Source: an uncultured Trueperaceae bacterium (GTDB taxonomy: Bacteria; Deinococcota; Deinococci; Deinococcales; Trueperaceae). From it: a stretch of 64,000 nucleotides of DNA. Shown here piece after piece: positions 25,363-58,083 of the stretch. Both the position numbers and the translations under genes were made by a program. The notes beneath the pieces were generated by a model. That model was not told the origin of the DNA. It saw only the letters and a program-made list of their open reading frames with translations, and ran no database searches. Numbering within the stretch: position 1 is the first letter of the stretch; every line of letters starts with the position of its first letter. Where the stretch lies: positions 1-64,000 of the forward strand of contig CAVSGP010000008.1 of NCBI GenBank assembly GCA_963727505.1, in the 5' to 3' direction.

Positions 25363-26301
25363 ATGAACGAGGGAACGCCCGTATTTAAGAGCTGGACGAC
25401 GGCCTGGCTGCTGTTGCTGCCCACGGTCGTCATCCTGGTGATCTTCCTTTACTATCCCGCCCTCCAGTCGTTCGTCCTCAGCATGTACCGCAGCAACCTG
25501 ATCCTGGGGACGCGCCGGTTCATCGGGTTGGAGAACTTCCGGCAGCTCTTCTCAGGCCTGCTGGCGCCGATGTACCGCCAGGTGGTGCTGCAGAGCGTGG
25601 TCTTCAGCGCCTCCGTGGTGATCCTGGGCCTGATCGTCAGCCTGGCCTTCGCGATGCTCGCCAACCAGAAGGTGACGGGCTCGCGCTTCTACCGGCTGCT
25701 GCTCATCTGGCCCTTCGCGCTGTCGCCGGCCATCGCCGGCACCATCTTCTCGTTCCTGTTCAACCCGCAGGTGGGCGAGGTCAACCAGGTCCTCTCCCGC
25801 GTGATCGGTATCGCGCCGCGCTGGCTCGACAACCCGCTGCTGGCGTTCGGCCTGGTGGTCGGCGCAGCGATCTGGAAACAGCTCGGCTACAACGTCGTGT
25901 TCTATCTCGCGGCGCTGCAGAACATCCCCGGGGAGCTGTCGGAGGCGGCCGCCATCGACGGTGCCAACGCCTGGCAGCGCTTCCGGGCGGTGACGCTGCC
26001 GCTGCTCTCGCCGATGACGTTCTTCCTGGTGTTCACCAACCTGGCCTACTCGTTCTTCGAGGTCTTCGGCCTCATCGATATCCTCACGAAGGGCGGCCCC
26101 GTGGGTCCGAGTGCGTTGCACCTGGACAACGCCGGCCTGACAACGACCATGATCTACCGCCTGTACCAGGACGGCTTCGGCGGCACCGGCAGCCTCGGCT
26201 TCGCCGGCGCACAGGGCGTGGTCCTGCTCCTGCTCGTCGCCGTCATCACGGTGTTGCAGTTCCGTTACGGCGGGCGCAACGTTCACTACGGAGGGGGCTG
26301 A
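25363..26301 (+). CDS. Carbohydrate ABC permease, UgpA-like
   Basis: WKQLGYNVVFYLAALQNIP, EAAAIDGA, LPLLSPMTFF. Confidence 0.9.
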   Translation: MNEGTPVFKSWTTAWLLLLPTVVILVIFLYYPALQSFVLSMYRSNLILGTRRFIGLENFRQLFSGLLAPMYRQVVLQSVVFSASVVILGLIVSLAFAMLANQKVTGSRFYRLLLIWPFALSPAIAGTIFSFLFNPQVGEVNQVLSRVIGIAPRWLDNPLLAFGLVVGAAIWKQLGYNVVFYLAALQNIPGELSEAAAIDGANAWQRFRAVTLPLLSPMTFFLVFTNLAYSFFEVFGLIDILTKGGPVGPSALHLDNAGLTTTMIYRLYQDGFGGTGSLGFAGAQGVVLLLLVAVITVLQFRYGGRNVHYGGG

Positions 26302-26302
26302 G

Positions 26303-27229
26303 ATGGCGGCGCGAACGGTGAGCACCGGGACGCCCACCCGCAAGGGTCGACGCCCCCGCACGCGTTGGCTCATCCACATCCTGTTGATCCTGAGCTGCCT
26401 GCTCGTGACGGGCCCGATCCTGTTCGCCTTCATCAAGGCGACGCAGACCACGGCACAGGTGCTTTCGCCGAGTATGGTGCCGGGCCTGGAGCTGTGGCAC
26501 AACGTGAAGACCGCCTGGGTGACCGCCGATCTCGGCATCTACATGCGCAACTCGCTGATCATCGCGTTCGCCGTGACCCTGGGCAAGACGATCCTGTCGC
26601 TGATGGCGGGGATGGCGCTGGTGTACTTCCGGATCCCCTTCAAGCCCATCGTGTTCGGCTTCATCCTGCTGACGCTGATGATGCCCACGCAGGTGCTCAT
26701 CGTGGGGCTGTTCGACCTGGTGTCGAAGCAGGCGCCGCCGACCTGGGTGGCGCTGCTCTCCTGGATCACGCATCCGCTGGCGCCCACGGCCTACGGCTTC
26801 AACTGGTCGAACTCCTACTGGGCCATCATCGTGCCGTTCCTGGCCTCCGCGACCGGCGTGTTCCTATTCCGGCAGCATTTCATGTCGATCCCGGTGAGTC
26901 TGGCCGACGCCGCCAAGATCGACGGCGCCGGCCCGTTGCGCTTCCTGCTGAGCATCCTGGTGCCGATGAGCACCAACACCATCGGCGCGCTGGCCGTGAT
27001 CCAGTTCGTCTACGTCTGGAACCAGTACCTGTGGCCGCTGGTCATCATCCGGCGCGCCGATCGGCAGGTGGTCCAGGTGGGCCTCAACCTGATCATCAGC
27101 ACGGGGCAGGACACGGAGTGGGGACTGGTGATGGCCGGGGCCATCCTCGCGCTGATCCCGCCGCTGATCGTGTTCATGCTGCTTCAGGAGCAGTTCATGC
27201 GCGGCTTCGCGCTCTCCGCCGAGAAGTAA
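26303..27229 (+). CDS. Carbohydrate ABC permease, UgpE-like
   Basis: ASATGVFLFRQHF, DAAKIDGAGP, WNQYLWPL. Confidence 0.9.
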   Translation: MAARTVSTGTPTRKGRRPRTRWLIHILLILSCLLVTGPILFAFIKATQTTAQVLSPSMVPGLELWHNVKTAWVTADLGIYMRNSLIIAFAVTLGKTILSLMAGMALVYFRIPFKPIVFGFILLTLMMPTQVLIVGLFDLVSKQAPPTWVALLSWITHPLAPTAYGFNWSNSYWAIIVPFLASATGVFLFRQHFMSIPVSLADAAKIDGAGPLRFLLSILVPMSTNTIGALAVIQFVYVWNQYLWPLVIIRRADRQVVQVGLNLIISTGQDTEWGLVMAGAILALIPPLIVFMLLQEQFMRGFALSAEK

Positions 27230-42684: not shown

Positions 42685-43716
42685 CTAGCGGGTGCGGGTG
42701 ACCTTGCGCAGGTGGCGGGGCGCGTCCGGATCGATCCCGCGCGAGCGCGCCAGGCGTTCGGCGAGGAGCTGGCCGGCCACGACCAGCACGAAGCTCGCCG
42801 TGACCTCGTGCAGCCCTTCGGGCAGCGCCGCCGACGCGGATGCGAGGCGCAACAGCGAGGGTGCGCCCGCCAGCACCGTCAGGTCGGCGCCGACCTCGCG
42901 CAGCCGCGAGGCGACCGCCTCGTTTCCACTCAGGCTGGCGTCCTCGGTCGCCAGCAGCAGCAGCGGGTCGCCGGCGTCCACCACCGCGATGGGGCCATGC
43001 TGGAACTCGGCGCTGGAGTACGCCTGGGCGTCGATGTAGGCCGTCTCCTTGAGCTTGAGGGCGGTCTCCAGCGCGGCCGCGAACGACAGGCCGCGCCCCA
43101 GCACGTAGAGCCCATCGGCGTGCGTCAGTCGCAGCGCCGCCCGCTCCAAGGCGTCCACGTCGGCCAGCAGGGTCTCCAGCGCGGGCGGGACGGCGTCGAG
43201 CGCAGCGCGCAGATCGTCGTCGGCCGCCCACTCCGCCACCAGTCGCGCCAGCACCATCATCTGGCTGGTGAAGGTCTTGCTCGCCGCCACCGCCTGTTCC
43301 TCGCCGGCGTGCTGTGCCAGCGCGTGGTCGGCCTGCGTCGCCAGATGGCTGCCCGGCTGGTTGGTCACGGCCAGCGTGAGCGCGCCGGCCTCCTGCAGCG
43401 CGGCCAGACCTTCCACCACGTCGGTGCTCTCGCCGGACTGGCTGACGCCGATGCCGAGCGCGCCCTCGAGCCGCAGGCGGGCGCCGTAGAGGGTGAGCAG
43501 CGAGGGCGGCACGCTCGCCACCGGCAACCCCAGGCTGCGGCCCGCCAGATAGGCGAAGAAGGTGACGGCGTTGTCCGACGAGCCACGCGCCAGCGTGGCG
43601 ACCAGCGGCACGTCGCGGCCGCGCAGCTCGCCCGCCAGCTCGGCAACGGACGGGTCCTGCAGGATGCGCGCCAGGACGGCGGGTTGCTCGGCGATCTCGC
43701 GTTCGAAGTGACTCAC
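42685..43716 (-). CDS. SIS-domain glucosamine-6-phosphate deaminase (NagB-II type)
   Basis: EIAEQP, ARGSSDNA, SQSGES, AVAASKTF, ALKLKET, EFQHGP, HLRKVTRT; no glutaminase domain. Confidence 0.88.
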   Translation of the reverse strand: MSHFEREIAEQPAVLARILQDPSVAELAGELRGRDVPLVATLARGSSDNAVTFFAYLAGRSLGLPVASVPPSLLTLYGARLRLEGALGIGVSQSGESTDVVEGLAALQEAGALTLAVTNQPGSHLATQADHALAQHAGEEQAVAASKTFTSQMMVLARLVAEWAADDDLRAALDAVPPALETLLADVDALERAALRLTHADGLYVLGRGLSFAAALETALKLKETAYIDAQAYSSAEFQHGPIAVVDAGDPLLLLATEDASLSGNEAVASRLREVGADLTVLAGAPSLLRLASASAALPEGLHEVTASFVLVVAGQLLAERLARSRGIDPDAPRHLRKVTRTR

Positions 43717-44600
43717 GGGTCCTCCCGTCGATCGTCCAGTGCGTCGCGCACGCGGTCGCGGTGGCGCGCGAGAAGTGTGCGGGCCACCTCCGGGTCGACG
43801 CCCGCCTCCAGCATCACGATGGCCTCGCGGATCCCCCAGGCGGCGGCGGCCAGGGAACGTTCGGCAGCCTCGCGCGGCGCGCCGGTGGCCGCGCACACCA
43901 CCTCCACCGCCCTTCGCCGGAGCTTGGCGTTGGTGGGGCGCATGCCGACCATCAGGTTCCGGTAGGCGCCGCCCGAGCGCACGAGCACGGCCGTGGACAG
44001 CGCGTTGAGGGCGATCTTCTGCGCCGTGCCTGCCGCCAGCCGGGTGGAGCCGGCCAGCACCTCCGGTCCGGTATCCAGCAGGACGCCGACCTCGGCCGCG
44101 GCGAGCAGCGGTGTGCCGGCGTTGTTGGCGATGCCGACGGTGAACGCGCCGCGTTCGCGGGCGGCGTGGATCACGCTGAGGGTGTAGGGCGTGCGGCCGC
44201 TGGCCGCGATGCCGAGGACCGCGTCGTCCGGCCCCAGGCCGGCGCCCGCGACGTCGCGGGCGGCCGCGTCCGTGTCGTCCTCGGCGTTCTCGACGGCCAC
44301 GGCGCCGGCGCTGCCGCCGCCGGCCATGAGCACCACGGTGCGCTCGAAGCCGAAGGTGGGCGGCAACTCCGCGGCGTCCTGCAGGGCGATGCGGCCCGAG
44401 GTTCCGGCGCCCGCGTACACGAGCCGACCGCCACGCGACAGGCGCGCCTCGACGCCGATCGCCGCCCGCTCCAGCGCGTCGCGTGCGTTCCACGCGGCAT
44501 CGACCGCGCGCTGGCCGCCATCGACGACGGCATCGACGATGCGGCCGAGGGACCAGACGTCGAGGTCCCGGTAGTTGGGGTCGCGGCCCTCCGTGGTCAT
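43713..44600 (-). CDS. murQ: N-acetylmuramic acid 6-phosphate etherase
   Basis: GAGTSGR..DAAELPPTFG, AVENAED, AASGRTPY, GPEVLAGSTRLAAGTAQK. Confidence 0.95.
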   Translation of the reverse strand: MTTEGRDPNYRDLDVWSLGRIVDAVVDGGQRAVDAAWNARDALERAAIGVEARLSRGGRLVYAGAGTSGRIALQDAAELPPTFGFERTVVLMAGGGSAGAVAVENAEDDTDAAARDVAGAGLGPDDAVLGIAASGRTPYTLSVIHAARERGAFTVGIANNAGTPLLAAAEVGVLLDTGPEVLAGSTRLAAGTAQKIALNALSTAVLVRSGGAYRNLMVGMRPTNAKLRRRAVEVVCAATGAPREAAERSLAAAAWGIREAIVMLEAGVDPEVARTLLARHRDRVRDALDDRREDP

Positions 44601-45346
44601 GGCTCGCCCGCCCGCAGGTGCAGCACCATGCGGTACATGTCGCCACGATACGCACTGCGCACGAACTCGAAGGGCCGGCCGTTGCCGTCGTACGTGGTGC
44701 GCTCGAGCTCGAGCACCGGGACGTCGCGGCCGATCTGCAGCAACCGGCACTCCTTGGCCGTCGGAAGGCGCGCGCCTACGGCCTGCCGCGCTCGTGCCGG
44801 ACGGATCCCGAACTGCGCTTCCAGGCAGCGGTAGAGGCTGCCGGTGCGCTCCAGCTCCTCGAGCGACAGCGCCGCGACATGCGGGGCCAGGTTCGCCGCC
44901 TGCAGGGCGAGCGGTGCGTCGTCGGCGCCGCGAAGGCGCTCGATGCGGAGCAGCGGTGCGCCCGCCGGCACGAGCAGGGCGGCGGCGGCGTCACGGTCGG
45001 CGGGGACCTCGGAGGACGCGAGCAGACGTGCGGTGGGATGGAACCCGAGGCCGCGGGCCTCGTCGGTGAAGCCCAGCACGCGATCGAGCACCTGTTCCAG
45101 GGGGTGGCCCCGGACGTACGTGCCCGAACCCTGGCGCTGCTCCACCAGGTCTCGGCGCTCGAGTTCCTCGAACGCGCGGCGCACGGTCATGCGCGACAGC
45201 CCGAGTTGCTGCGCCAGCTCGCGTTCGCTGGGCAGCGCCTGCCCGGGGCTGAGCGAGCCGTCCTCGATGGCCTGCTCCAGCGCCTGGCGGAGCTGCAGGT
45301 ACGCCGGCGTCGGCAGGGCCTTGTCGATGGCGGGCGCGAACGTCAT
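44597..45346 (-). CDS. GntR/HutC (UTRA) family regulator, NagR-like
   Basis: LPSERELA..SRMTVRRA..QGSGTYV; C-terminal UTRA (YRGDMY); alternative GTG start at 45364. Confidence 0.92.
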   Translation of the reverse strand: MTFAPAIDKALPTPAYLQLRQALEQAIEDGSLSPGQALPSERELAQQLGLSRMTVRRAFEELERRDLVEQRQGSGTYVRGHPLEQVLDRVLGFTDEARGLGFHPTARLLASSEVPADRDAAAALLVPAGAPLLRIERLRGADDAPLALQAANLAPHVAALSLEELERTGSLYRCLEAQFGIRPARARQAVGARLPTAKECRLLQIGRDVPVLELERTTYDGNGRPFEFVRSAYRGDMYRMVLHLRAGEP

Positions 45347-45591
45347 GGGACGCTCGGCCGCCACGGGGCTACGACCGTGACCATGCCACTATTGTACCAA
45401 TCCGCGCCGGGCCTCTATACTTGACTCGTCCAACGAGGGTGCCGCGCGAGGTGCAAGCGGCCAAGCCGCCGGAGTCGGCCGGGCGACGTCCGCTCCTCCC
45501 GAACGAACCGGCGGCGTGCTGTCCCCGACGGCGCCCTCGAGCGCTCTCCCGACCGCGATGCCGGCGGGGGAGGATCGATCGGAGGAAAGGT

Positions 45592-46824
45592 ATGAAGAGG
45601 ATCGGTGGCATGCGTCTCCTGGCCGTTCTGCTCGGCCTGGTCCTGCTTGGCAGCGCGGCAGCGCAATCGCTGTCGTTCTGGAGCTGGCGTACGGAGGACG
45701 TCGACGCCTACAACAGCTTCATCGCCGCGTTCCAGAAGGATCACCCCAACATCGACGTCACGTTCACGCCCTACAAGAACACCGAATACAACACCATCCT
45801 GTCGACCGCCATGCAAGGCGGCGGCGGCCCGGACATCGCCCACCTGCGCGCCTACGGCGGCATAGAACCACTGGCGGAGGCCGGCTTGCTGGTTCCCCTG
45901 GGCGACAAGGTGCCGGCGCTCGCCAACTTCGACCCCAACGTGCTCAAGGCCGCCACCGACCGCGCCGACGGCAAGGTCTACGGGGTGCCATTCGCGCTCC
46001 AGACCATCCAGGTCCTGTACAACAAGGACGTCTTCGCCAAGCTCGGCCTCAGCGAACCCAAGACCTGGCAGGAGTTCCTCGACGTCGCGCAGAAGATCAA
46101 GGCGTCCGGGATCGACGCGCTCGCCAACGGCACCAAGGACCCATGGACGGTCGAGACGCTGTTCGGCGGCGTGGCCCCGGCGTTCTACGGCTGCAACGCC
46201 TTCTACGACAAGATGGCGGCCGGCACGTCCACCTTCGAGGACCCCGCCTTCAAGGGCGCGCTACAGCGCATGGTCGACCTCGAGCCCTACCTGGCGAGCA
46301 ACTACCAGGGCGTGGCCTACTCCGACATGCAGTCGCTGTTCGCCTACGGCCAGGCCGGCATGCTCATCGGCGGCAGCTACGAGCTCGGCACGCTCGCCCA
46401 GCTCGCTCCCGACTTCAACGTCGGCTCGTTCCTGATCCCCAACGATCAGGGCCAGACCTGCGAGACCTTCTACGTCGACGGCTCGTACGGCATCAACACG
46501 GCCAGCAAGCACCAGGACGCCGACGTGCAGTTCATCAACTTCCTGGCGAGCAAGGCGTACGGTCAGATGTTCACCGACACCCTGAAGCAGATCTCGGCGG
46601 TACCCGGTGTCCTCCCGACCGATCCGGTACTGGCGCAGATGGCCGACCGGATGCACAGCGAAGGCACGCCCTACCTGATGCTCACGCTCTTCCGCTACGG
46701 TCAGCCCTCGGGCTCGACGCTGTTGCAAAACGAGATGCAGGCCGTGCTGGCCGGTAGCGAGACCGTCGACCAGGCGGCCGCCAACATCCAGCGCGGGGTG
46801 GCGACCTGGTACACCTTCCAATAG
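45592..46824 (+). CDS. Sugar ABC substrate-binding protein (candidate amino-sugar/disaccharide binder)
   Basis: RBS; signal peptide; GGGPDI, YGVPFA, YNKDVF, PKTWQEF. Confidence 0.9.
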   Translation: MKRIGGMRLLAVLLGLVLLGSAAAQSLSFWSWRTEDVDAYNSFIAAFQKDHPNIDVTFTPYKNTEYNTILSTAMQGGGGPDIAHLRAYGGIEPLAEAGLLVPLGDKVPALANFDPNVLKAATDRADGKVYGVPFALQTIQVLYNKDVFAKLGLSEPKTWQEFLDVAQKIKASGIDALANGTKDPWTVETLFGGVAPAFYGCNAFYDKMAAGTSTFEDPAFKGALQRMVDLEPYLASNYQGVAYSDMQSLFAYGQAGMLIGGSYELGTLAQLAPDFNVGSFLIPNDQGQTCETFYVDGSYGINTASKHQDADVQFINFLASKAYGQMFTDTLKQISAVPGVLPTDPVLAQMADRMHSEGTPYLMLTLFRYGQPSGSTLLQNEMQAVLAGSETVDQAAANIQRGVATWYTFQ

Positions 46825-46951: not shown

Positions 46952-47881
46952 ATGACGGGCGCGCGGGTGTGGTTCCGTCGCCACGGTCACCTGGTGGTGT
47001 TCCTGGCGCCGGGGTTGCTCCTCTACGGGCTGTTCATGGCCTACCCGCTGCTCACGTCGCTGTCGTACAGCCTGTCGGACTGGCACGGCCTGCTGCGCGG
47101 CGCCTTCTCGGGCTTCGCCAACTTCACCAAGGTCCTGACGCAGTGGCCGTACAACGTGCGCTTCTGGGGCGCGTTGAGTCACAACGCCCTGTTCTTCTTG
47201 TTGACCTTCCTGATCCAGTCCACCCTGGGGCTGTTCCTGGCCGTGCTGCTGAGCCGCAAGTGGCGCGGCTTCGCCTTCTTCCAGGCGGCATATTTTCTTC
47301 CCTACACGATGTCGATGGTGGTCGTGGGCTTCCTCTGGCTGCTGCTGCTCAACCCCACCTGGGGCCCCGTGGCACACGGCCTCAGGCTGGTGGGCCTGGG
47401 CGAGTGGGTGCAGCCGTGGTTGGGGCAACGCGGCACGGCCCTCGTCACCGTGATCCTGGTCAACTCCTGGCACTGGCTGGGCTTCCCGGTGCTGGTCTTC
47501 ATGGCCGCCATCCAGGGCATCCCGCGCGAGTTCTACGAGGCCGGACTGGTGGACGGCGCCAACGACTGGCAGGGCTTCCGCTTCATCACCTTGCCGTTGT
47601 TGCTCCCCAGCCTCGCCATGATGTCGATCCTCACCTTCATCTGGGACTTCAACGCCTTCGAGCTCGTGTTCGTCATGCAGGGTGCGTCGGGGTCGCCGAA
47701 CTACGCCACCGACCTGCTGGCGACCCTCTTCTACCGGACCGCCTTCGGGGACCCCACCACCGGCGGCGAGCCCGGGCAGATCGGCCTGGCCTCGGCCATC
47801 GGCGTGCTGATGCTGATCATCATCGGTGCCGCCTCGGCCTTCGGCGTGCGCTTCACCCAGCGCAGCCAGACGGAGTATTGA
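46952..47881 (+). CDS. Sugar ABC permease
   Basis: IPREFYEAGLVDGA EAA loop; ITLPLL. Confidence 0.92.
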   Translation: MTGARVWFRRHGHLVVFLAPGLLLYGLFMAYPLLTSLSYSLSDWHGLLRGAFSGFANFTKVLTQWPYNVRFWGALSHNALFFLLTFLIQSTLGLFLAVLLSRKWRGFAFFQAAYFLPYTMSMVVVGFLWLLLLNPTWGPVAHGLRLVGLGEWVQPWLGQRGTALVTVILVNSWHWLGFPVLVFMAAIQGIPREFYEAGLVDGANDWQGFRFITLPLLLPSLAMMSILTFIWDFNAFELVFVMQGASGSPNYATDLLATLFYRTAFGDPTTGGEPGQIGLASAIGVLMLIIIGAASAFGVRFTQRSQTEY

Positions 47882-47882
47882 C

Positions 47883-48746
47883 ATGCTTCCCCGCGCCCCT
47901 ACGGCCCGGTCGCGCCCGCCAACAGCGCGCGTGCTCTCCCGCCTGCTGATCTACCTGGTGCTCGTGCTGCTGGCGCTGGGCTTCCTCTACCCCATCGCGC
48001 TGATGGTGCTCGACGCCTTCAAGACGACACCCGAGATCTTCCGGAGCCCCTTCGGGCTGCCGTCGCACGTGGGCCTGGAGACCTTCCGCGAGGTCTGGCG
48101 CCGTGCCCACTTCGGCCTCTACCTGCGCAACAGCGTCCTGGTGACCGGAGGCTCGCTGGCGGTGCTGCTGGCCTGCGCGGCGCCCGCCGCCTACGCCATC
48201 GCCCGCTACCGCTTCCCGGTGCGGGGCCTGATCTTCCTGTTCTTCCTTGCCGGAATCATGGTACCGATCCGGCTCGGCATCCTCCCGCTCTATCTGCTGA
48301 TGAAGCACCTGAGTCTGCTCGACACGCCGTTCTCGCTGATCCTCACGTACGCCGCGAGCGGCATGCCGATGTCGGTGTTCCTGCTGAGCACCTTCTTCCG
48401 AACGCTCCCCAGCGATCTGGAGGACGCCGCGCGCATCGACGGCTGCAGCGAGTACCGCACTTTCTGGAGCATCATGCTGCCGCTGGTGCGCCCCGCCGTC
48501 GCCACCGTGACGATCGTCAACGTCGTGCCCTGGTGGAACGACTTCTTCTTCCCGCTGCTGTTCCTGCAGAGCAACACCTGGAAGACGGTGCCGCTGGGCA
48601 TGCAGATCTTCTTCGGTCAGCACCTGACGAACTGGAGCCTGGTGTTCGCCGGCATGCTGATGTCCAGCCTTCCCCTGCTTGTCGTCTACCTCCTGATGTC
48701 GCGGCAGTTCATCTCCGGCCTGACGTCGGGCGCGCTGAAGGGCTGA
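47883..48746 (+). CDS. Sugar ABC permease
   Basis: LEDAARIDGC, WNDFFFPL, GLTSGALKG. Confidence 0.92.
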   Translation: MLPRAPTARSRPPTARVLSRLLIYLVLVLLALGFLYPIALMVLDAFKTTPEIFRSPFGLPSHVGLETFREVWRRAHFGLYLRNSVLVTGGSLAVLLACAAPAAYAIARYRFPVRGLIFLFFLAGIMVPIRLGILPLYLLMKHLSLLDTPFSLILTYAASGMPMSVFLLSTFFRTLPSDLEDAARIDGCSEYRTFWSIMLPLVRPAVATVTIVNVVPWWNDFFFPLLFLQSNTWKTVPLGMQIFFGQHLTNWSLVFAGMLMSSLPLLVVYLLMSRQFISGLTSGALKG

Positions 48747-48751: not shown

Positions 48752-51019
48752 ATGGCGCCGATCGTCGCGCTCGGGATCGACCGCCTGGTGACCGACCCCG
48801 AGGTCTGGTTGCGGGGGCGCCGGGTGGCGCTGCTCGCCAACCATGCCTCGCTCACCTCCGAACACCGGCCCAGCGTGGACGCGCTGGGAGAGGCTCTGGG
48901 CGGCGGCCTGACGGCGTTGCTGACCCCCGAGCATGGGGCGAGCGGCTTCGAGGAGGATGCCACCGCCGTCCCGGACGGGCGTGACGCCCGCACCGGTCTC
49001 CCCGTCCACAGCCTCTACGGGCCGCGACGGCGACCCGACCCCGAGCTGCTGCGCCGCCTCGACGCGGTCGTGGTGGACCTGCGGGACGTTGGCGTGCGTT
49101 GCTACACGTACGCCACCAGCGTGGCCCTGCTGCTCGAAGCCGCTCGCGAGACGGGCACCGAGGTGCTGGTGTGCGACCGGCCGTCGTTGCTCGGCCCGCG
49201 GGTCGACGGTCCCGCGCTCGACAGCGCGCGCCGTTCGTTCCTGGCGTATCTCGACGTTCCTCTCCAGCACGGCCTCACGCTGGGCGAGCTCGCCCGCCGC
49301 CATGCGCGCCGGCTCGGCGGCGCGCCGCTGCGCGTGATCGCGGTCGAGGGGTGGCGCCGCGGCCAGCCGGATCCCGGGCCCTTCGTGCCCCCATCGCCCG
49401 GTCTGCCCTCGGCGGCTTCCGTGGCGTTGTACCCGGGGCTGGTCGCCCTCGAGGGCACCGGGCTCTCCGAGGGCCGTGGCACGCCGCTCCCCTTCGAGCT
49501 GGTGGGCGGTCCGGACGTCGACGGGCACGCGCTGGCCCGGGAACTGAACGCCCTCGGGCTGGGGGGCGTGTGGGCGCGGCCGGTGGCGTTCCGCCCGGAC
49601 AGCGGCAAGCTCATGGGGCTGGCGTGCCAAGGGGTGCAGCTCCACCTCTCCGACCCCGCCGCGCTGCGGCCGCTCGAGCTCGGCGCCGCCGTGCTGCGCG
49701 CGCTGTTCGCGGCCGGGAAGGTGAGCTGGCGGCGGTCGGACGCCATGCCGTGGGCGCAGGCGCCGGACGCGGGGCGGCCCTGGCACGAGCCGGTGGAGGG
49801 CTTGCTGGTCGATGCCCTGTTGGGCGACGACAGTTTCCGTGCGGTGGCGGAGGGGCGGGTGTCGTTCGCGGATGCGGCCGGGCTCTGGGCGGAGCAGCAC
49901 CACGCCTACCTGGAGGCGTTGGACGGCGACCTGCTGTACCGTCCTGCACCTGCTGCATGGCCTGCAGGGACGTCGCAGGTGGCGTCGCGGGTGGCGCCGC
50001 ATGGTCCAGCGCTCGGAGCGAGTCCGGCGCGGGCGGCGCCTCCGAGCGACGCGCGTCCGGCAGGGAACGACGCGCCGGCGGCGAGCCAAGGGACGCGTCA
50101 GGGCGGCCCGCTCGGCCTCGGCATCGACGCGGGCGGCTCGAGCACGCGCTGGCGGCTCGAGGGCCCCGCCGGGGCGGTGGCGGAGGGGCGGTTGCCAGCA
50201 CTCGCCGGGCACCTCTACGACGACGCCGGGCGCAGCGATGCCGGCGCCCGGTTGAGCGAGCTGGCGGCGGCGGTGGCCGCCGCCTCGGCCGAGCCGCCGA
50301 CGGCGGTGGTGGCCGGCGTCACGGGCCTGGCGCAGGCAGGCGCAGAAGCCACCTGGCTGCGTCGCGAGCTGGCCGCCGGGATCGGCCTTGCCGAAGCGGC
50401 GGTGACCGTGCTCGACGACATCGAGCTGGCCCTCAGGGCGGCCTTCGCGGGGGACGACGGTGTGCTGGTGTACGCCGGCACCGGTGCGATCGCCGTCGCC
50501 CGCGCGGGCGGTCAGCGGCTTCGCGCGGGTGGCCACGGCTACCTCCTGGACGACGATGGAGGGGGCTTCTCGATCGGGCGCGCGGCGCTCCGCGCCGTGC
50601 TGCGCCAGACCGACGCCCGTGGCAGCACGCCGGACACACCTCTCGCGCACCGGCTCTACGGCGCGATCGGGGGTGCCGACTGGGACAGGGTGCGCGCCTA
50701 CGTCTACGGCGGCGGTCGCGGCGCCGTGGCGGCGCTGGTGCCGCTCGTCGTGCAGGCGGCGGCCGACGGGGACGGCGAGGCGCGCGCGATTCTGACGTGG
50801 GCCGGAGAGGAGCTCGCGCGCCTCGCCCGCCTCCTGCTCCAGCGCTGCGGCGAGCCGCGCCCGGTGGCTCTGGCAGGGGGGGTGGCCAAGGTCGGAGGCG
50901 CGCTCGAGGCGAGGTTCCGGGGCGCGCTGCCGGCGGGTACGGAAGTCCGCGTGCTCACGGACGAACCTGTCCGTGCGGCGGCCCGCCTGGCGTGGGTAGC
51001 AGCGCAGGGCGCGCGATAA
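48752..51019 (+). CDS. Fusion of a NamZ-like exo-beta-N-acetylmuramidase (DUF1343) and a BadF/BcrAD-type amino-sugar kinase
   Basis: N-terminal PEHG, SLYG..RRP, DLRDVGVRCYTY, HGLTLGELA, PSPGLP, SEGRGTPLPFELVG; Pro/Ala linker; C-terminal GIDAGGSST, AGTGA, RAGGHGYLLDDDGGG, LAGGV. Confidence 0.85.
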   Translation: MAPIVALGIDRLVTDPEVWLRGRRVALLANHASLTSEHRPSVDALGEALGGGLTALLTPEHGASGFEEDATAVPDGRDARTGLPVHSLYGPRRRPDPELLRRLDAVVVDLRDVGVRCYTYATSVALLLEAARETGTEVLVCDRPSLLGPRVDGPALDSARRSFLAYLDVPLQHGLTLGELARRHARRLGGAPLRVIAVEGWRRGQPDPGPFVPPSPGLPSAASVALYPGLVALEGTGLSEGRGTPLPFELVGGPDVDGHALARELNALGLGGVWARPVAFRPDSGKLMGLACQGVQLHLSDPAALRPLELGAAVLRALFAAGKVSWRRSDAMPWAQAPDAGRPWHEPVEGLLVDALLGDDSFRAVAEGRVSFADAAGLWAEQHHAYLEALDGDLLYRPAPAAWPAGTSQVASRVAPHGPALGASPARAAPPSDARPAGNDAPAASQGTRQGGPLGLGIDAGGSSTRWRLEGPAGAVAEGRLPALAGHLYDDAGRSDAGARLSELAAAVAAASAEPPTAVVAGVTGLAQAGAEATWLRRELAAGIGLAEAAVTVLDDIELALRAAFAGDDGVLVYAGTGAIAVARAGGQRLRAGGHGYLLDDDGGGFSIGRAALRAVLRQTDARGSTPDTPLAHRLYGAIGGADWDRVRAYVYGGGRGAVAALVPLVVQAAADGDGEARAILTWAGEELARLARLLLQRCGEPRPVALAGGVAKVGGALEARFRGALPAGTEVRVLTDEPVRAAARLAWVAAQGAR

Positions 51020-51061
51020 CGCTTCGATACCGCCGGGTCTGGCGCGCGGCCGCGAGCCTAC

Positions 51062-52045
51062 TCAGCCGTGCGCCAGACCCTCCCGCACGAAGCGGAGCTG
51101 CTCCAGCACGTGGAGCGTCTCGCCGCCCTCGTGCCCGTTGAAGCGGTACAGGCGCAGGGTCTTGGGTCCGGCGTAGTGGTTGTAGGTGGCGTACACCGTC
51201 GACGGCGGTGAGATGAGGTCCATCAGGCCCGCCGAGAACAGGGCGCGCGCCGAGGCCCGGGCCGCGAAGTTCATGCCGTCGAAGTAGGCCAGGGTCGCGA
51301 AGACGGCGCCCACCTTGCCCTTGTGGACCTTGCAGTAGCCGGCGATCTCGGCGTAGGGCGCAGCGTCGGTGATGGTGGCGGCGCGCTCGAAGTGGCACAG
51401 GAAGGGCACGTCCGGCAACGCCAGCGGCAGGTCGGGCACCAGGCCCGCCAGCGCCAGCGTGAGGCCGCCGCCCTGGCTCCGGCCGGTGGCCGCCACGCGT
51501 GCCGGGTCGACCGCCGGATGGGCGCGCAGGGTGCCCAGCGCCCGGACCGCGTCGGTGTACAGGCGACGGAAGTAGTAGGTCTCCGGGTCGAGGATGCCCG
51601 CCGTCATGAAGCCGGGATGGTGCGGCCCGGTGGCGTTGGGGTCGTCCATGGGATCGGCCGTGGCTCCCTCCAGCCAGGCGCTCCCCTGGCCGCGGGTGTC
51701 CATCACCAGCGTGGCGAAGCCGGCGCTGGGCCACAGCAACCAGTCGGCGGGGAAGCCGCGACCGCCTCCGTAGCCGATGAACTCCACCATGCCCGGTAGC
51801 GGCCCGTCGCGGAGCTTCGGCAAGAGCAGCCAGCCGCGCACCGGCTGGCCCGCGAAGCCGGCGAAGGTGACGTCGAAGGCGTCGATGGTTGCCAGACCGG
51901 CGTCGAACGGTTCGAAGCGCGGCTCCCAGGCGCGTGCTTCGGCGTCGTCGAGGGTTGCTTTCCAGAAGGCATCGAAGTCATCGGGTGCGGTGAGGGGCGG
52001 GAGGTAGCGTTCGAGTTCCTCCAGGGGCAGGTCGAAGACAGCCAT
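51062..52045 (-). CDS. Acetylxylan esterase / cephalosporin-C deacetylase (CE7)
   Basis: FDLPLEEL, GYGGGRG, DTRGQG, GRSQGGG, PPSTV, NGHEGG. Confidence 0.93.
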   Translation of the reverse strand: MAVFDLPLEELERYLPPLTAPDDFDAFWKATLDDAEARAWEPRFEPFDAGLATIDAFDVTFAGFAGQPVRGWLLLPKLRDGPLPGMVEFIGYGGGRGFPADWLLWPSAGFATLVMDTRGQGSAWLEGATADPMDDPNATGPHHPGFMTAGILDPETYYFRRLYTDAVRALGTLRAHPAVDPARVAATGRSQGGGLTLALAGLVPDLPLALPDVPFLCHFERAATITDAAPYAEIAGYCKVHKGKVGAVFATLAYFDGMNFAARASARALFSAGLMDLISPPSTVYATYNHYAGPKTLRLYRFNGHEGGETLHVLEQLRFVREGLAHG

Positions 52046-52126
52046 GGGGCTTCCTTCCTCGCGCGGTGTGCCGCGGGCACGCCCAGGCTACCCGGTCGAG
52101 CGGCGCTTCTCGGCGCTGCGTGCGGG

Positions 52127-52314
52127 TCACACGTCTCGCCCGCGCAGGGTGGGGTCCAGCAGGTCCCGCATGCGCGGCATGCTTGTGCGTGGGCTGTCCT
52201 ATCACGTCTCGTCCCGCGCAGGGTGGGGTCCAGGAGGTCCCGCATGCGCGGCATGCTTGTGCGTGGGGCCTACACGTCCCTCCCGCGCAAGGTCGGGTCC
52301 AGGAGGTCCCGCAT
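52127..52314 (-). repeat. Three tandem copies of the oppC 3' end (69-74 bp period)
   Basis: Copies at 52270-52314, 52199-52245 and 52127-52171, separated by a shared CCCACGCACAAGCATGCCGCGC spacer. Confidence 0.9.
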
Positions 52315-53118
52315 GCCGTCGCCGAAGAGATTGAAGCCCAGCGAGGCCAGCAGGATGGCGAGTCCCGAGACGATCGACACCCAGGGCGAGAGGAGCATGT
52401 AGTCGCGGCTCTGCGAGAGCATCAGGCCCAGCGAGGGGGTGGGCGGCTGCGTGCCGAGGCCGAGGAAGCTCAGGCTGGCCTCGACCAGGATGGCGGTGGA
52501 GAGCGAGAGCGTGGTCTGCACCAGGATGGGCGCAAGGATGTTGGGCAGCACGTGGCGCATGATGATGCGCCCACCTCCCGCTCCCACCGCGCGGGCCGCG
52601 GCGACGTAGTCCCACGACAGCACTGTCAGTGCGGGCCCACGGGCGAGCCGCGCGAAGATCGGCGTGTAGACGATGCCGATCGCCAGCGCCGTGTTGGTGC
52701 CGCCCGGACCCAGCACGGCCAGCACCGCGATGGCCAGCAGGATGATGGGGAATGCCAGCAGCACGTCCATGAGGCGCATCAGCAGGCGGTCGACCCAGCC
52801 GCCGAGGTACGCGGCGACAAGGCCGATGGTGGAGCCCAGCAACGTCGACAGGGCCACGGCACCGAACGACACCGCGATGGAGGTGCGGTAGCCGAAGAGG
52901 ATGCGCGCCAGGGTGTCCCGGCCGAAGTTGTCCGTGCCGAGCAAGTGGTGGAGGCTGGGTCCCTCGAAGCGCTCCAACACGCTCTGGTGCAGAGGGTCGA
53001 TGCCGACGACCCAGGGTCCGACGGAAGCGGCCAGCGCGACCAGGACAGCCAGCACGAAGCCCAGCATGCCGACGCGGTTGCGCCACAACCGCGCCAGGAA
53101 GTGACGCACGGGCGCCAT
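52270..53118 (-). CDS. Peptide ABC permease, OppC/DppC-like
   Basis: HLLGTDNFGRD, HVLPNIL, EASLSFLGLG, GDGMRDLLDP. Confidence 0.93.
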   Translation of the reverse strand: MAPVRHFLARLWRNRVGMLGFVLAVLVALAASVGPWVVGIDPLHQSVLERFEGPSLHHLLGTDNFGRDTLARILFGYRTSIAVSFGAVALSTLLGSTIGLVAAYLGGWVDRLLMRLMDVLLAFPIILLAIAVLAVLGPGGTNTALAIGIVYTPIFARLARGPALTVLSWDYVAAARAVGAGGGRIIMRHVLPNILAPILVQTTLSLSTAILVEASLSFLGLGTQPPTPSLGLMLSQSRDYMLLSPWVSIVSGLAILLASLGFNLFGDGMRDLLDPTLRGRDV

Positions 53119-54068
53119 CACCCGTACTCCACCCGCGGGTCGATCCAGGCGTAGGCCAGGTCGACGAGCAGGTTGACCACCACGAACACCGCGGTGATGG
53201 CGAGGACGATGCCCTGGATGAGCGGGTAGTTGCGCTGGTTGATGGCGCCGATGATCAGACGTCCGATGCCGGGGATGGCGAACACCTGCTCGATGACCAC
53301 CACGCCCGACAGCAGGTATCCGAGCTGCACGCCGATCACCGTGACGACCGGGATCATGGCGTTGCGCAGGGCGTGCTTGTAGAGCACCGGCCGTTCCGCC
53401 AGGCCCTTGGAGCGCGCCGTGCGGACGTAGTCGCTGTTGAGCACGTCGAGCAGGCTCGAGCGCAGGATGCGCGTCAGCCCCGCGATCATCGGTAGCGACA
53501 CGGCCACCACCGGCAGCGCCATGCGCGCCAGGTTGCCGAGCGGATCCTGGCCGAACGGGACGTACCCGATCGCCGGCCAACCCGGCAGATAGAGCGAGAA
53601 GACGAGCAGCATCAGCACGCCGACCCAGAAGGTCGGCAGCGTCAATCCCACGATCGACAGCACCCGAACCACCAGGTCGCTGGCGCTTCCGCGCGCGCGG
53701 GCCGACAGGACCCCGAGTGGGAAGGAGAGCACCAGCGCCAGCAGCAGCGCCAGTCCCGTGATCTCGAGGGTGGCGGGCGCGCGCGCCAGGATCTCGGCGC
53801 TCACCGGCCGCCCGGTCCAGATGCTGGTACCCAGGTCGCCGTGCAGCACGCCCGTCAACCAGCGCCAATATTGCGCGTGGATGGGCAGGTCGAGGCCCAG
53901 GCTGTGGCGCAGCGCGGCGACCCGGTCGGGCGTGATGTCGGTGTTGGCCCCCAGCATGATCTCGACGGCGTCCCCGGGGATGAAGCGCACCATCAGGAAC
54001 ACCAGGATCGAGACGCCGAGTAGCACGAAGGCGAGGTCGATGAGGCGGCGGGCGATGTAACCGATCAT
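53118..54068 (-). CDS. Peptide ABC permease, OppB/DppB-like
   Basis: PGD, GDLGTS, DYVRTARSKGL, HALRNA, DLAYAWIDPRV. Confidence 0.93.
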   Translation of the reverse strand: MIGYIARRLIDLAFVLLGVSILVFLMVRFIPGDAVEIMLGANTDITPDRVAALRHSLGLDLPIHAQYWRWLTGVLHGDLGTSIWTGRPVSAEILARAPATLEITGLALLLALVLSFPLGVLSARARGSASDLVVRVLSIVGLTLPTFWVGVLMLLVFSLYLPGWPAIGYVPFGQDPLGNLARMALPVVAVSLPMIAGLTRILRSSLLDVLNSDYVRTARSKGLAERPVLYKHALRNAMIPVVTVIGVQLGYLLSGVVVIEQVFAIPGIGRLIIGAINQRNYPLIQGIVLAITAVFVVVNLLVDLAYAWIDPRVEYG

Positions 54069-54189: not shown

Positions 54190-55690
54190 CTACGGCAGGC
54201 TCACCTCGCGCAGGTAGCGCAGGCCGCGCGTGGGCATCTGCTGGAAGCCCTGGACGTTGTCGCGCAGGCCCGTGAAGAGCGTCCCGTAGGCGATGTGGAC
54301 GATGGGTCCGGTGCAGGCGAGCTGCTTCTGGAGGTTGTCGTAGATCGCCTGGCGCTGGCCCTTGTCGGCGGTGGTGCGGCCCTGGTCGAGCAGGGTGTCG
54401 ACCGACGGGTCGCTGAACTTGAAGATGTTGGTCGAGCCGCCGGTGTGGAACGTGCGGTAGAGGTAGCCGTCGGGGTCGGTGGAGCCGCCGTTCAGGCTCA
54501 CGAACATGTCGAAGTTCGAGTTCTTCCAGTCCTGGACGAACTTGCCGAACTCCTCCACATCGACCTTGGCGTCGATGCCGACCTGCGCGAGCTGCGCCTG
54601 GAGCACCTGGGCGGTGTCGGACACCTCCTTGATGGTGCCGAAGGTGATGATGGTGGTCTTGAAGCCGTTGGGGTAGCCGGCGTCGGCCAGCAACTGCTTG
54701 GCCTTCGCCACGCTGGGCTGGTAGCAGGGGAACTGCGAGACCGGCACGGCCCAGTCCTTCAGCGCCGGGCTGAGTGGGCCGCCCGGCACGGCGTTGCCGA
54801 GGTAGACGGCCTGCACGATGTCGGAGCGGTTCACCGCGTAGTTGATGGCCTCACGCACGCGCGGGTCGTCGAAGGGCTTGCGGCTGACGTTGAGGCCGAG
54901 CAGCGAGTAGGCAAGATCTTGCGTGCCCATCACGGTGACGCCGCCGGCGTTCTTGAGCGTCTGCGCGGTGACGGGGTCGACCGTGGGGAGGAGCTGGTAG
55001 GTGCCGGTGCGCAGCCCCGCGGCCCGGGTGGACGCCTCGGGCACGATGTTGAACTTGAGCTCGGCCACCTTGGGCTCGCCCGGCCGGTAGTAGTCGGGGT
55101 TCGCCTTGAGCAGCACGTAGGTGTCGGGGACGACCTTGTCGAGCTCGAAGGGGCCGGTGCCGACCGCCACCTTCTGCAGGTTGCCGTTGGCCTCGACGAC
55201 CTCCTTGGGCACGACGTAGAGGTTGGTGAGGTTGGCGAGGAAGGGAGCGAACGGCTCCTTCAGCGTGAAGCGCACCTCGTACGGTCCCGTGGCCTCGATC
55301 TTGGACACCTCGCTGAAGCGGCTGGCCTGCGGCGAGCCGGTGTTGGGGTCCATGATGCGGTCGTAGGAGTAGACGACGTCGGCCGACGTCATCTGCGCGG
55401 CCGTTGTGGAACTTGACGCCCTGGCGCAGCTCGAACGTGTAGCTCAGGCCGTCGGGCGACACCGACCACGACGTCGCCAGCGCGGGCTCGAGCTGGAGCT
55501 TGCTGTTGACCTCCAGCAGCCCCTCGTAGATCTGGTCGACCACGGCGAAGGACGAGAAGGCCGTGACGATGTCGGGGTCGAGACCGACCGGCGATTGGTC
55601 GACGGCGATCTCGAGCGTTCCCTGTTGCGCATACGCCAGGCTCATGGCGGCGACGAGCGCTGCTACGAGCAGACCGATACGGATTCGCAT
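54190..55690 (-). CDS. Peptide ABC substrate-binding protein (family 5), split by a 1-nt frameshift near 55393-55398
   Basis: AAGGAGG RBS; signal peptide; PALATSW..YTFELRQGVKFHNGR continues as MTSADVVYS..GTGPF in the adjacent frame. Confidence 0.88.
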
Positions 55691-55771: not shown

Positions 55772-55815
55772 CTAGTGTACCATTCCCAGACCAGTCGATT
55801 CAATCGTGCTAGCGT
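55772..55815. promoter_or_regulatory. Divergent promoter region with TGGTAC-like direct repeats
   Basis: Minus strand TTGAAT-N18-TACACT containing TGGTCT-N5-TGGTAC; plus strand TGcTAGCGT 7 nt before the ATG at 55823. Confidence 0.5.
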
Positions 55816-55822: not shown

Positions 55823-56908
55823 ATGAACCATGCAGCAGCGGCCGAGGCCCGGGGCCGGGACGCCGTGGCAGCCGCCCTCGAGGCGGCGGTCGCGGACGGG
55901 ACGGTGCCGGGAGGCGTGCTCCTGGTCGGCGGCGCCGACCACGTCTGGGACCCCGTCGTCGCCGGCGTACGGCGCTACGGGGGGGAGCGCGTGACGCGCG
56001 ACACCCGCTACGACCTCGCCTCGCTCACCAAGGTCGTCGGCTGCCTGAGCGCCCTGTTGCACCTCCTCGACGCCGGTGCGCTGACCCTGGACGACCCGGT
56101 CCGGAAGTTCTTCAGCAACGCCGGCTGGTTCCAGGAACCCTCGCTCGGCGACGTTCGCCTCGAAGCGCTCGCCACCCACGTGTCGGGCCTGCCGGCGTGG
56201 CGGGCGCTGTTCGCGCAGGTCACAGGGCGCCGCATGGCCCTGGCCAGCGTGTTGCAGACGCCGCTCGAAGGGCCCGCCGACCGCTTCCGCTACTCCGATC
56301 TCGGGGTCATCGTCCTGACGGCCGTCATCGAGCGCGTCGCCGGGGAGCGGATCGATGCGCTGCTGGCGCGCGAAGTCTTCGAGCCGCTCGGCATGGACCG
56401 CACCGGCTACGGCCCGCTCGACCCCGGCCTCCCCGTCGCCGCCACCGAGGACGACGGCCTGCGCGGTGGTGTCCTGCAGGGCGTCGTCCACGACGAGAAC
56501 GCCTGGGCGTTGGAGGGTATCTCCGGGCACGCCGGCCTGTTCGCCCCGGCTTCCGACGTGCTCGCCTTCGGCCTGGCCTGGCTGCGGCTCCAGGCGCCGT
56601 TCGCCTCGGAGGGCACGCTCCGGTCGGCCCTGCGCGATCGCTCCGGCGGCGAGGGCGCTCGTCGCGGCCTGCTGTGGCGCCTGGGCGAGCCCGATGGGTT
56701 CTTCGGGCCGGAGACGACGGAGGCGGCGTTCGGGCACACCGGCTTCACCGGCACCAGCCTGGTGGTGGAGCCGCGTCAGGGCTGGACGGCCGCCCTCCTC
56801 ACCAACCGCGTGCACCCGACCCGCGAGGCGGGTGCCGGGATCGACGACCTGCGCAGGCGCGTGCACGGCCTGGTGGCCGGCGCGTTCGACGAGGAGGCGC
56901 TGCGATGA
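55823..56908 (+). CDS. Beta-lactamase-fold serine hydrolase; AmiE-like MurNAc-L-alanine amidase by context
   Basis: DLASLTK (SxxK), YSDLG, GVVHDENA, GHAGLF, GHTGFTG, LTNRVHP; no signal peptide. Confidence 0.8.
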   Translation: MNHAAAAEARGRDAVAAALEAAVADGTVPGGVLLVGGADHVWDPVVAGVRRYGGERVTRDTRYDLASLTKVVGCLSALLHLLDAGALTLDDPVRKFFSNAGWFQEPSLGDVRLEALATHVSGLPAWRALFAQVTGRRMALASVLQTPLEGPADRFRYSDLGVIVLTAVIERVAGERIDALLAREVFEPLGMDRTGYGPLDPGLPVAATEDDGLRGGVLQGVVHDENAWALEGISGHAGLFAPASDVLAFGLAWLRLQAPFASEGTLRSALRDRSGGEGARRGLLWRLGEPDGFFGPETTEAAFGHTGFTGTSLVVEPRQGWTAALLTNRVHPTREAGAGIDDLRRRVHGLVAGAFDEEALR

Positions 56909-58083
56909 CGGATTCCGAACAGGGTGCGGCCGTTCCCGGCGATCTGGCAGCGATGACGGTGCTCGGCCTCATGTCGGGCACCTCGCTGGACGGGGTGGAC
57001 ACGGTCACCGTACGCCTGGCGCGGCGCGGCGGCCGGCTCGACTGGGAGGTGCTGGCGCGCGCTTCCCACCCCTACGACGATGCCCTGCGCGAGCGCTTGC
57101 AGCGCGCCATCGATCCGGCGCGCTCCGACGTGATCCTGTTGACCGAGCTCCACCAGGAGGTGGGGCGGGCCTACGCCGACGCGGCGGCTTCGGCCGCCGC
57201 GCGCCACCCGCTCGACCTGGTGGGCCTCTCGGGCCAGACCGTGTACCACATCCCCCGAGCCGACGAGGAACGGGGCTGGCACGTGGTGAGCACCCTGCAG
57301 CTGGGGGAGGCGAGTGTCGTGACCGAGCGTTGCTCGGTCGTGACGGTGTCGGACTTCCGGCAGGCGGACCTGGCGGCGGGCGGTCAGGGGGCGCCGATGG
57401 TGCCCTTCGCCGACCTACAGCTCTACCACCGGCCAGGGGAGCGGATCGCCGTGCAGAACATCGGCGGCATCGGCAACGTCACCGTGCTGCCGGCCGACGG
57501 CGACCCGGCGGCGGTGCAGGCGTTCGACACCGGTCCCGGCAATTGCCTGATGGACGAGGCGATGGAGTTGCTGTTCGACGAGCCGTTCGACGATCAGGGG
57601 CGGGTGGCGGCCTCGGGGCGCGTTCTGGGCGACGCCCTGCAGCGGCTGCTCTCCGAGCCCTACTTCGAGCTCCCGCCACCCAAGACCACCGGCCGCGAGC
57701 TGTTCACGCTTCCGCGCGCCATGGAGCGCGGCGGTCTCGAGGGCGCGGCCCCCGCCGACGTGGTCGCGACCCTGAACGCGTTCACCGTGGCGTCGATCGC
57801 GCAGGCGTACGAACGCCACGTGCTGCCCGGAGGCCTCGATGAGGTGCTGATCGCGGGCGGCGGCGCCCGCAACCCGGTCCTGGTCGAGGGACTGCGCCGG
57901 CGCCTGCCGGTGCGGGTCCGTACCTTCCGGGAGGCCGGCTACCAGGACAAGGACCGCGAGACGCTGGCGATGGCGGTGATGGCGTTCATGGCGTTCCACG
58001 GGGAGCCGAACGTGCTGCCCGCAGCGACGGGCGCGCGGCATCCGGTGATCGCGGGGAAGGTGTGCCGGCCCTACCGGGGTTGA
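56905..58083 (+). CDS. anmK: Anhydro-N-acetylmuramic acid kinase
   Basis: GLMSGTSLDGVD, GQTVYH, DFRQADLAAGGQGAP, NIGGIGN, FDTGPGN, PPKTTGRE. Confidence 0.96.
   Translation: MTDSEQGAAVPGDLAAMTVLGLMSGTSLDGVDTVTVRLARRGGRLDWEVLARASHPYDDALRERLQRAIDPARSDVILLTELHQEVGRAYADAAASAAARHPLDLVGLSGQTVYHIPRADEERGWHVVSTLQLGEASVVTERCSVVTVSDFRQADLAAGGQGAPMVPFADLQLYHRPGERIAVQNIGGIGNVTVLPADGDPAAVQAFDTGPGNCLMDEAMELLFDEPFDDQGRVAASGRVLGDALQRLLSEPYFELPPPKTTGRELFTLPRAMERGGLEGAAPADVVATLNAFTVASIAQAYERHVLPGGLDEVLIAGGGARNPVLVEGLRRRLPVRVRTFREAGYQDKDRETLAMAVMAFMAFHGEPNVLPAATGARHPVIAGKVCRPYRG

Follow-up and report, generated by a model that had tools for sequence, protein, structure and literature searches.

The stretch of DNA analysed here (the window) is the first 64,000 nucleotides of contig CAVSGP010000008.1, contig C8 of a 3.26-Mb, 97% complete genome from an uncultured Trueperaceae bacterium of the Deinococci, and has a G+C content of 70%. 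Within a locus for the breakdown of peptidoglycan sugars it carries a gene for an acetyl esterase of the CE7 family. The comparisons suggest, with a probability of roughly 45%, that this esterase strips O-acetyl groups from imported, scavenged fragments containing N-acetylmuramic acid (MurNAc) before the sugar is phosphorylated at C6. De-O-acetylation is favoured because of the traits of CE7 enzymes, the block that a C6 acetyl group would put on phosphorylation, the presence of a kinase route to MurNAc-6-phosphate, and the occurrence of CE7 only where a kinase adjoins the glycosidase NamZ. The substrate, the order of the steps and the co-regulation are all ones that we infer from sequence. The protein itself is an unremarkable CE7 enzyme, and the locus varies on the MurQ/NamZ/AnmK salvage loci already known; what is new is the added esterase.

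The esterase

The gene at the centre of the analysis is this one:

51062..52045, minus strand: CE7 acetyl esterase (AXE1 family), 327 amino acids, ATG start, matched by Pfam AXE1 and by TM0077

Judged by its sequence, the product is a cytoplasmic CE7 acetyl esterase of the ordinary kind, with a complete catalytic apparatus. Pfam AXE1 (PF05448) covers residues 1-320 of the protein (profile positions 1-318 of 321) at E 3.2e-104 and 348.6 bits, against a cut-off of 21, and this is the single strong AXE1 match in the genome. An SGNH/GDSL fold was also looked for, and a Pfam scan of the protein at E<=1e-5 gave AXE1 alone. The best relative in the PDB is TM0077 of T. maritima (1vlq, E 3.8e-120). The CE7 signature motifs named in excerpts of PMC6282417 (RGQ, GxSQG and HE) are found as RGQG at 118, as G-R-S-Q-G with Ser190 and as HEGG with His305, and the triad Ser190/Asp276/His305, with Asp276 in GLMD, aligns with Ser188/Asp274/His303 of TM0077. 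By inspection, the N-terminus MAVFDLPLEEL is in register with the native TM0077 start from residue 1 on, which indicates that the protein has no signal peptide. A putative ribosome-binding stretch, GAGGAAGGAAG, lies directly upstream of the ATG. A consensus scan of 50800-52600 gave no promoter-like site and one terminator-like site, which lies within the esterase gene on the opposite strand.

In all of these respects the protein resembles TM0077 (1vlq/3m81) and the Bacillus enzymes CAH/AXE: the alignments are full-length and free of large gaps, the motifs and triad are common to them, and signal peptides are absent. The match to B. subtilis CAH has an E-value of 3.6e-64. Excerpts of PMC6282417 describe TM0077 as an intracellular enzyme that cleaves glucose pentaacetate and short esters and does not cleave xylan. 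They describe the CE7 chamber as a hexamer with narrow entrances that admits small substrates, and the family as lacking positional specificity. A doughnut-shaped hexamer that limits substrate size is assumed for the window protein, by analogy with its close match TM0077.

Acetyl groups at C6

O-acetylation of MurNAc at C6 is widespread, and it blocks lysozyme and lytic transglycosylases. The C6 hydroxyl is also the one that MurK-type kinases, or the MurP phosphotransferase system (PTS), must phosphorylate. Excerpts of PMC6737391 place MurNAc O-acetylation at C6, and excerpts of PMC9477735 suggest that NAGK does not 6-phosphorylate MurNAc when it is O-acetylated. The initial annotation had reasoned that a C6 acetyl group blocks 6-phosphorylation and that CE7 enzymes are intracellular and act on small substrates, and this logic is sound as far as excerpts of PMC9477735 and PMC6282417 go. 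In the window, AnmK would serve the 1,6-anhydro form, which cannot bear a 6-O-acetyl group, and the MurK-like kinase domain would serve reducing MurNAc. Since the anhydro form cannot carry it, the acetyl group could block only the kinase route of the two routes to MurNAc-6-phosphate.

Linkage in related genomes

The linkage of CE7 to peptidoglycan genes, which the initial annotation had seen in one genome, recurs in others; its being unique to this genome, which that annotation had named as a refuting result, is thereby excluded. A class-wide survey of 201 Deinococci genomes found a CE7 orthologue in 45 (G000 counted). Flanks of about 20 kb were taken for 40 CE7 loci from 39 genomes; G116, G126, G068, G176, G183 and the second CE7 copy of G148 lay outside this set. 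Peptidoglycan genes stand beside CE7 in four of the 40 loci, three from the same genus as the window (G173, G166, G158) and one from another genus (G172). A family-level search with the NamZ-kinase protein added a third genus (G209), and a scan of 79 CE7 loci on genome contigs, many with short flanks, added contig L003; the CE7 of G166 is identical to that of contig L004. The metagenome comparison set consisted of five contigs with a CE7 of at least 74% identity (L191, L192, L193, L195, L231), some of which may be from the same species as the genomes, and all five CE7 genes are linked. In an 88-sequence CE7 tree with SH-aLRT supports the linked enzymes form one clade, the support being 100 for a group of six and 84 once G172 joins it.

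Within or at the edge of the locus, the gene was found in five different orders (arrowheads give gene direction):

Order A, in the window and G173, and in G158 with a 3-kb MarR/ABC/HTH insert: kinase> <CE7 <OppC
Order B, in G172, with a kinase-CE7 spacer of about 60 bp: NamZ> kinase> CE7> <OppC
Order C, in G166: CLC> small ORF> CE7> fasciclin> <AnmK
Order D, in L003, L192 and L193, with a CE7-GntR spacer of 129 bp: OppC> <HTH <PGA_cap CE7> GntR> MurQ> SIS
Order E, in G209: Opp-type> GH3> SBP1> perm> perm> NamZ> kinase> <CE7 then kdp

The esterase is inverted in G172 and shifted beyond AnmK in G166, and in both it is still with pathway genes; it is directly co-directional with pathway genes in two of the five orders. 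These arrangements bear on the main and serious rival explanation, which is that the gene is a passenger: a promiscuous housekeeping acetyl esterase that landed here once, was kept by inertia and acts outside cell-wall sugar catabolism. We consider this somewhat less likely than the proposed role. All seven clade members in the genome collections and all five metagenome contigs are linked, despite the five orders, the inversion in G172, the move in G166 and CE7 identities of 60-78% across the clade. Spacers to co-directional genes are also short, at about 70 bp from OppC in G173 and at the values given above for the kinase in G172 and GntR-MurQ in L003.

Presence of the esterase goes together with the position of the kinase. 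A kinase gene or domain comes right after NamZ in every CE7-linked locus whose NamZ region is visible (6/6 genomes, and contigs L195 and L231), and in none of the eight NamZ loci that lack CE7, which have NamZ alone. Within the family, CE7 is thus seen only where a kinase adjoins NamZ; this may reflect a single event.

Some further features of the related loci were recorded. On L191 (10954-11610) a CE7 gene, 82% identical, is followed by a 23-residue GntR remnant, behind which a SIS/NagB-II-like gene begins; this suggests a deletion within the CE7-GntR-MurQ-SIS arrangement. An open reading frame (ORF) of about 85 amino acids with a hydrophobic stretch is conserved directly upstream of CE7 in G166 and G209 (L113, about 3635-3890; L190, about 12540-12790, minus strand), and is not at the matching position in the window. 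In the order D locus of L003, a CapA-like PGA_cap gene (2169-3218, minus strand) and an HTH_31 regulator gene (1745-2098, minus strand) lie between OppC and CE7; an HTH_31 gene also adjoins OppC in G158.

The surrounding locus

The genes of 42.7-58.1 kb in the window all relate to the catabolism of amino sugars or peptidoglycan fragments. The placement of the esterase in a peptidoglycan locus was therefore right: MurQ and AnmK score above their NCBIfam cut-offs, with NamZ-kinase, GntR, NagB-II-like and PBP4B-like genes around them. Final gene limits were set from Pfam/NCBIfam matches, tblastn and inspection of start codons. Besides the esterase, the locus holds these features:

42685-43704, minus strand: NagB-II-like double-SIS glucosamine-6-phosphate deaminase, scoring under the equivalog cut-off
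43713-44600, minus strand: MurQ, MurNAc-6-phosphate etherase (NF003915, 325.9 bits, cut-off 168)
44597-45364, minus strand: GntR/UTRA (HutC-type) regulator, by Pfam/NCBIfam
45592-46824, plus strand: SBP_bac_1 binding protein of a sugar ATP-binding cassette (ABC) importer, with signal peptide, by Pfam/NCBIfam
46952-47881 and 47883-48746, plus strand: two permeases of the sugar ABC importer, by Pfam/NCBIfam
48752-51019, plus strand: NamZ with a BadF/BadG-type, MurK-like sugar kinase in a single 755-amino-acid frame (NamZ_N 184 bits, NamZ_C 110 bits)
52117-52316, no strand: 74-bp tandem repeat, 2.8 copies with 87% matches, which duplicates the final codons and the stop codon of the OppC-like gene
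52270-53118, minus strand: OppC-like permease (BPD_transp_1 and OppC_N)
53118-54068, minus strand: OppB-like permease (BPD_transp_1_N and BPD_transp_1)
54190-55690, minus strand: SBP_bac_5 (Opp/Dpp-type) binding protein with signal peptide, frameshifted in the assembly
55823-56908, plus strand: Beta-lactamase-family serine hydrolase, PBP4B/AmpH-like, without signal peptide; best NCBIfam match PBP4B
56905-58083, plus strand: AnmK, anhydro-MurNAc kinase (NF007148, 405.1 bits, cut-off 387; Pfam AnmK E 4e-88)

The NamZ-kinase frame runs from NamZ_N and NamZ_C through a low-complexity linker to the BadF/BadG kinase, has no signal peptide, and converges on the esterase gene with a gap of 42 bp. NamZ and the kinase are also a single frame in G158 and G166, and a TGA lies between them in G172. 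Compared with the PDB, the kinase domain matches a Sulfolobus hexokinase at E 2.3e-19 and, more weakly, the MurNAc/GlcNAc kinase 8zo3 at E 1.9e-14 (GlcNAc is N-acetylglucosamine); against the NagK equivalog it scores 64 bits, with a cut-off of 370.

The esterase gene lies downstream of the SBP_bac_5, OppB-like and OppC-like genes on the same strand, and by position the initial annotation correctly called it the last gene of the Opp-type unit. This unit is a binding protein with two permeases and has no ATPase genes alongside, in the window or in relatives (including L190 2-4085); such units presumably borrow ATPases encoded elsewhere. The spacer between OppC and the esterase is 224 bp, mostly filled by the tandem repeat, at which the metagenome contigs stop. 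In G173, of the same genus, there is a single repeat copy and the spacer is 70 bp. The SBP_bac_5 gene is split over two frames in the assembly, near 55394-55396; at this place the contigs of four metagenome runs, drawn from two studies, are one base shorter, which gives a single 1500-nucleotide frame from start to stop. An assembly error or strain variation probably accounts for the frameshift, and decay of the Opp unit, which it might have indicated, was rejected on the strength of these four runs.

This position raises the second rival explanation, that the esterase is the partner of the Opp-type importer and acts on other cargo, such as O-acetylated peptides, other esters, or acetylated oligosaccharides in the style of the Thermotoga xylan cluster, in which TM0077 has an Opp-family transporter and a xylosidase as neighbours. 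In Thermotoga, binding proteins of the Opp family bind sugars. In the window and in G173 the esterase is the next gene after OppC and has the same orientation, and some loci of Streptomyces, Nonomuraea and Anaerolineaceae (L019, L025, L029, L031, L037, L040) have Opp-type genes no more than 10 kb from CE7. According to excerpts of PMC6282417, TM0077 co-localises with xylanase and xylosidase genes, whereas the window esterase stands beside MurQ, NamZ-kinase, AnmK, GntR and peptide-type Opp genes. The nearest PDB relatives of the SBP_bac_5 protein are peptide binders (5u4o, YliB/GsiB and DppA, with MppA at E 8e-14), and the 60 relatives listed include none named as a sugar-binding protein. In the window, Pfam scans of the ORFs gave no xylanase, no xylosidase, no GH10, GH11 or GH43 gene and no glycoside hydrolase other than NamZ, which bears out the earlier remark that xylan genes are absent. 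The window thus differs from a Thermotoga-type Opp importer with CE7 in its peptide-binder relatives and in NamZ being its sole glycoside hydrolase, a contrast drawn with no direct Thermotoga sequence comparison. Moreover, the esterase is attached to the kinase, AnmK or GntR-MurQ, and not to the Opp unit, in G172, G166, G209 and L003/L192/L193, and in the window the Opp unit has a promoter region in common with the PBP4B-like and AnmK genes. We regard other cargo as quite improbable.

The serine hydrolase at 55823-56908, which we take to be AmiE-like, overlaps AnmK by 4 bp and is translationally coupled to it. As a Beta-lactamase-family gene 3.8 kb from the esterase it suggests a third rival, in which the esterase is a cephalosporin-C-type deacetylase acting with this neighbour on imported beta-lactams. 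CE7 enzymes do deacetylate cephalosporin C as well as 7-ACA (7-aminocephalosporanic acid), according to excerpts of PMC6282417 and the names of PDB molecules. The neighbour, however, scores 105.8 bits as PBP4B-like and only 28.5 bits as a class C beta-lactamase (cut-off 415); its coupling to AnmK and the amino-sugar catabolism of all other locus genes also speak against an antibiotic role, which seems very improbable indeed.

Elsewhere in the window, a hexuronate cluster (13629-27229, with UxaC, UxaE, SDR, LacI, a TRAP transporter and a sugar ABC importer) lies 25 kb from the CE7 locus and includes a Lar_N gene at 15686-17002. A type-B carboxylesterase (COesterase) gene stands separate at 5058-6788. 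A LarA-type lactate racemase gene (L184, 7363-8703, plus strand) adjoins NamZ (8776-9915, minus strand) in the relative G140. MurQ releases D-lactate, and the racemase beside NamZ in G140 may be linked to lactate use.

Proposed pathway and known systems

In the proposed pathway, MurNAc-containing fragments from other bacteria would enter via the SBP_bac_1 sugar importer, the Opp-type importer or both. Stem peptides would be removed by the PBP4B/AmiE-like hydrolase and terminal MurNAc released by NamZ, with reducing MurNAc also coming via the PBP4B/AmiE-like hydrolase. The esterase would take off O-acetyl groups, chiefly from C6 of MurNAc, and the MurK-like kinase domain would then phosphorylate C6. 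MurQ would split the lactyl ether, NagB-II and central metabolism would continue from there, and AnmK would handle the 1,6-anhydro form. The initial annotation had named muropeptides as the substrate, and this is too narrow, as free MurNAc or MurNAc-GlcNAc is equally likely. A stronger form of the proposal, in which the CE7 clade is a dedicated cytoplasmic de-O-acetylase of 6-O-acetyl-MurNAc (and of O-acetyl-MurNAc-GlcNAc or muropeptides) for feeding on foreign O-acetylated, lysozyme-resistant wall debris, is one that we hold only tentatively.

MurNAc salvage loci are known as murQP-yfeW in E. coli, as murQRP-amiE-nagZ-namZ in B. subtilis, and with MurK in Tannerella and Clostridium; to our knowledge, none of those described contains an esterase. 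The window resembles them in clustering MurQ, AnmK, NamZ, a BadF/BadG kinase, a PBP4B/AmiE-like hydrolase and a regulator. It differs in taking up its substrates via ABC importers, where described loci have the MurP PTS, and in its cytoplasmic NamZ-kinase fusion. Taking 6-O-acetyl groups off MurNAc, as proposed here, is the chemistry of the Ape-type O-acetylpeptidoglycan esterases, which are periplasmic SGNH hydrolases. Compared with these, the window esterase has another fold and family (AXE1), is cytoplasmic and would act on small imported fragments instead of the sacculus; its purpose would be catabolism, not opening the way for lytic transglycosylases.

Candidate regulation

Two operator-like sites were found in divergent promoters of the locus:

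55773..55796, no strand: operator-like site GTACCATTCCCAGACCAGT in the divergent promoter of SBP5 and hydrolase-AnmK, kept in four relatives
45385..45405, no strand: operator-like site CCACTATTGTACCAAT in the divergent promoter of GntR and SBP1, kept in G173 and G158 and varied in G172 and G209

The two sites are related to each other, and across relatives they are conserved in G173, G158, G172 and G166 and variant in G209. From their sequence and position they are candidate sites for the GntR/UTRA regulator. Co-transcription of the esterase with the window's Opp-type genes, if it occurs, would place the gene under the site at the SBP5 promoter. The k-mers common to the spacer upstream of the esterase and the two operator-bearing promoters were GC-rich chance words only.

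Limits of the linkage

A number of results weigh against the proposed role. Acyl_transf_3, OatA-type SGNH and MBOAT genes are all missing from the 97%-complete genome, so that OatA/PatA-type O-acetyltransferases are absent and known routes of O-acetylation probably do not act on the organism's own wall. With no known peptidoglycan O-acetyltransferase in the genome, any O-acetylated substrate would have to be foreign and scavenged, not recycled.

As the gene comparisons indicate, the CE7 linkage has a single origin, in one Deinococci lineage. Having arisen once, it leaves the linked genomes non-independent, and small local rearrangements keep neighbours close by default. No peptidoglycan gene lies within about 10 kb of CE7 in 36 of the 40 fetched Deinococci loci, and in the 79-locus genome-contig scan such genes stand beside CE7 only in L003, L004 and L006. 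CE7 is present in 26 of 301 Bacillota genomes, 16 of which also have MurQ, and none of these 16 genomes has the pair within 10 kb, the smallest distance being 16.6 kb, in G230. The figures for Actinomycetota are 21 of 301 with CE7 and 14 of the 21 also with MurQ, none of the 14 pairs being near each other. A general CE7-MurQ linkage was therefore rejected, as it was unseen in the Bacillota and Actinomycetota genomes and in Chloroflexota, Actinomycetota and Spirochaetota relatives. The neighbourhood statistics that had been suggested for CE7 and peptidoglycan genes came out divided, with linkage throughout the clade and none in the 36 Deinococci loci or the 16 Bacillota and 14 Actinomycetota genomes. 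CE7 is not a regular part of MurQ-pathway loci, and its place in them is confined to one clade.

Within the family, eight genomes keep the SBP1-permease-NamZ operon with no CE7 nearby and no adjacent kinase, and four of the eight (G060, G140, G142, G143) have no CE7 match at E<=1e-20 genome-wide. Since the NamZ operon is present without CE7 in sister genera, the esterase is accessory to it. The protein has six residues specific to the clade, none of them in a signature motif; the active site is not retooled, and these residues therefore give no signal of specificity. Lastly, in none of the five arrangements does CE7 have an operator-like site directly upstream.

A housekeeping esterase kept by inertia is favoured by several of the same results, namely the single origin of the linkage, the NamZ operons without CE7 in sister genera, the active site that has not been retooled and the lack of an operator-like site of its own. 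It is also favoured by the heterogeneous neighbourhoods of the unlinked CE7 genes, at 16 Deinococci and 13 other-phylum loci, where neighbouring ORFs were called by a crude longest-ORF rule and many had no match. These neighbourhoods are mixed, with two-component systems, TRAP transporters, restriction enzymes and ETF, and some hold sugar genes (GH42, GH1, GH3, GH65, GH88, FGGY, ROK, LacI). The idea that this CE7 subfamily stands by default among xylan genes was considered as well and not borne out, as Pfam scans of the crudely called ORFs at these 29 loci gave no xylanase.

The central claim of the initial annotation, that the esterase unblocks imported O-acetylated fragments, is therefore kept in part. 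The persistence of the linkage and the plausible chemistry support it; confinement to one lineage, NamZ operons without CE7 and the absence of retooling count against it, and a role in recycling the organism's own wall is unlikely.

Significance

Only one Deinococci lineage provides the genomic signal, which limits the reach of the finding. The natural substrates of CE7 enzymes are still debated. No published link of CE7 to MurQ or MurNAc was found in the open literature (subscription papers were not covered), and no description was found there of how salvaged O-acetylated fragments enter the MurQ pathway. A cytoplasmic esterase step, if true, would fill that gap. The enzyme would then be the first cytoplasmic peptidoglycan de-O-acetylase, and its role the first physiological one for CE7 beyond the breakdown of plant polysaccharides. 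It would give CE7 a defined physiological substrate, and would bear on the turnover of bacterial necromass in soils and sediments.

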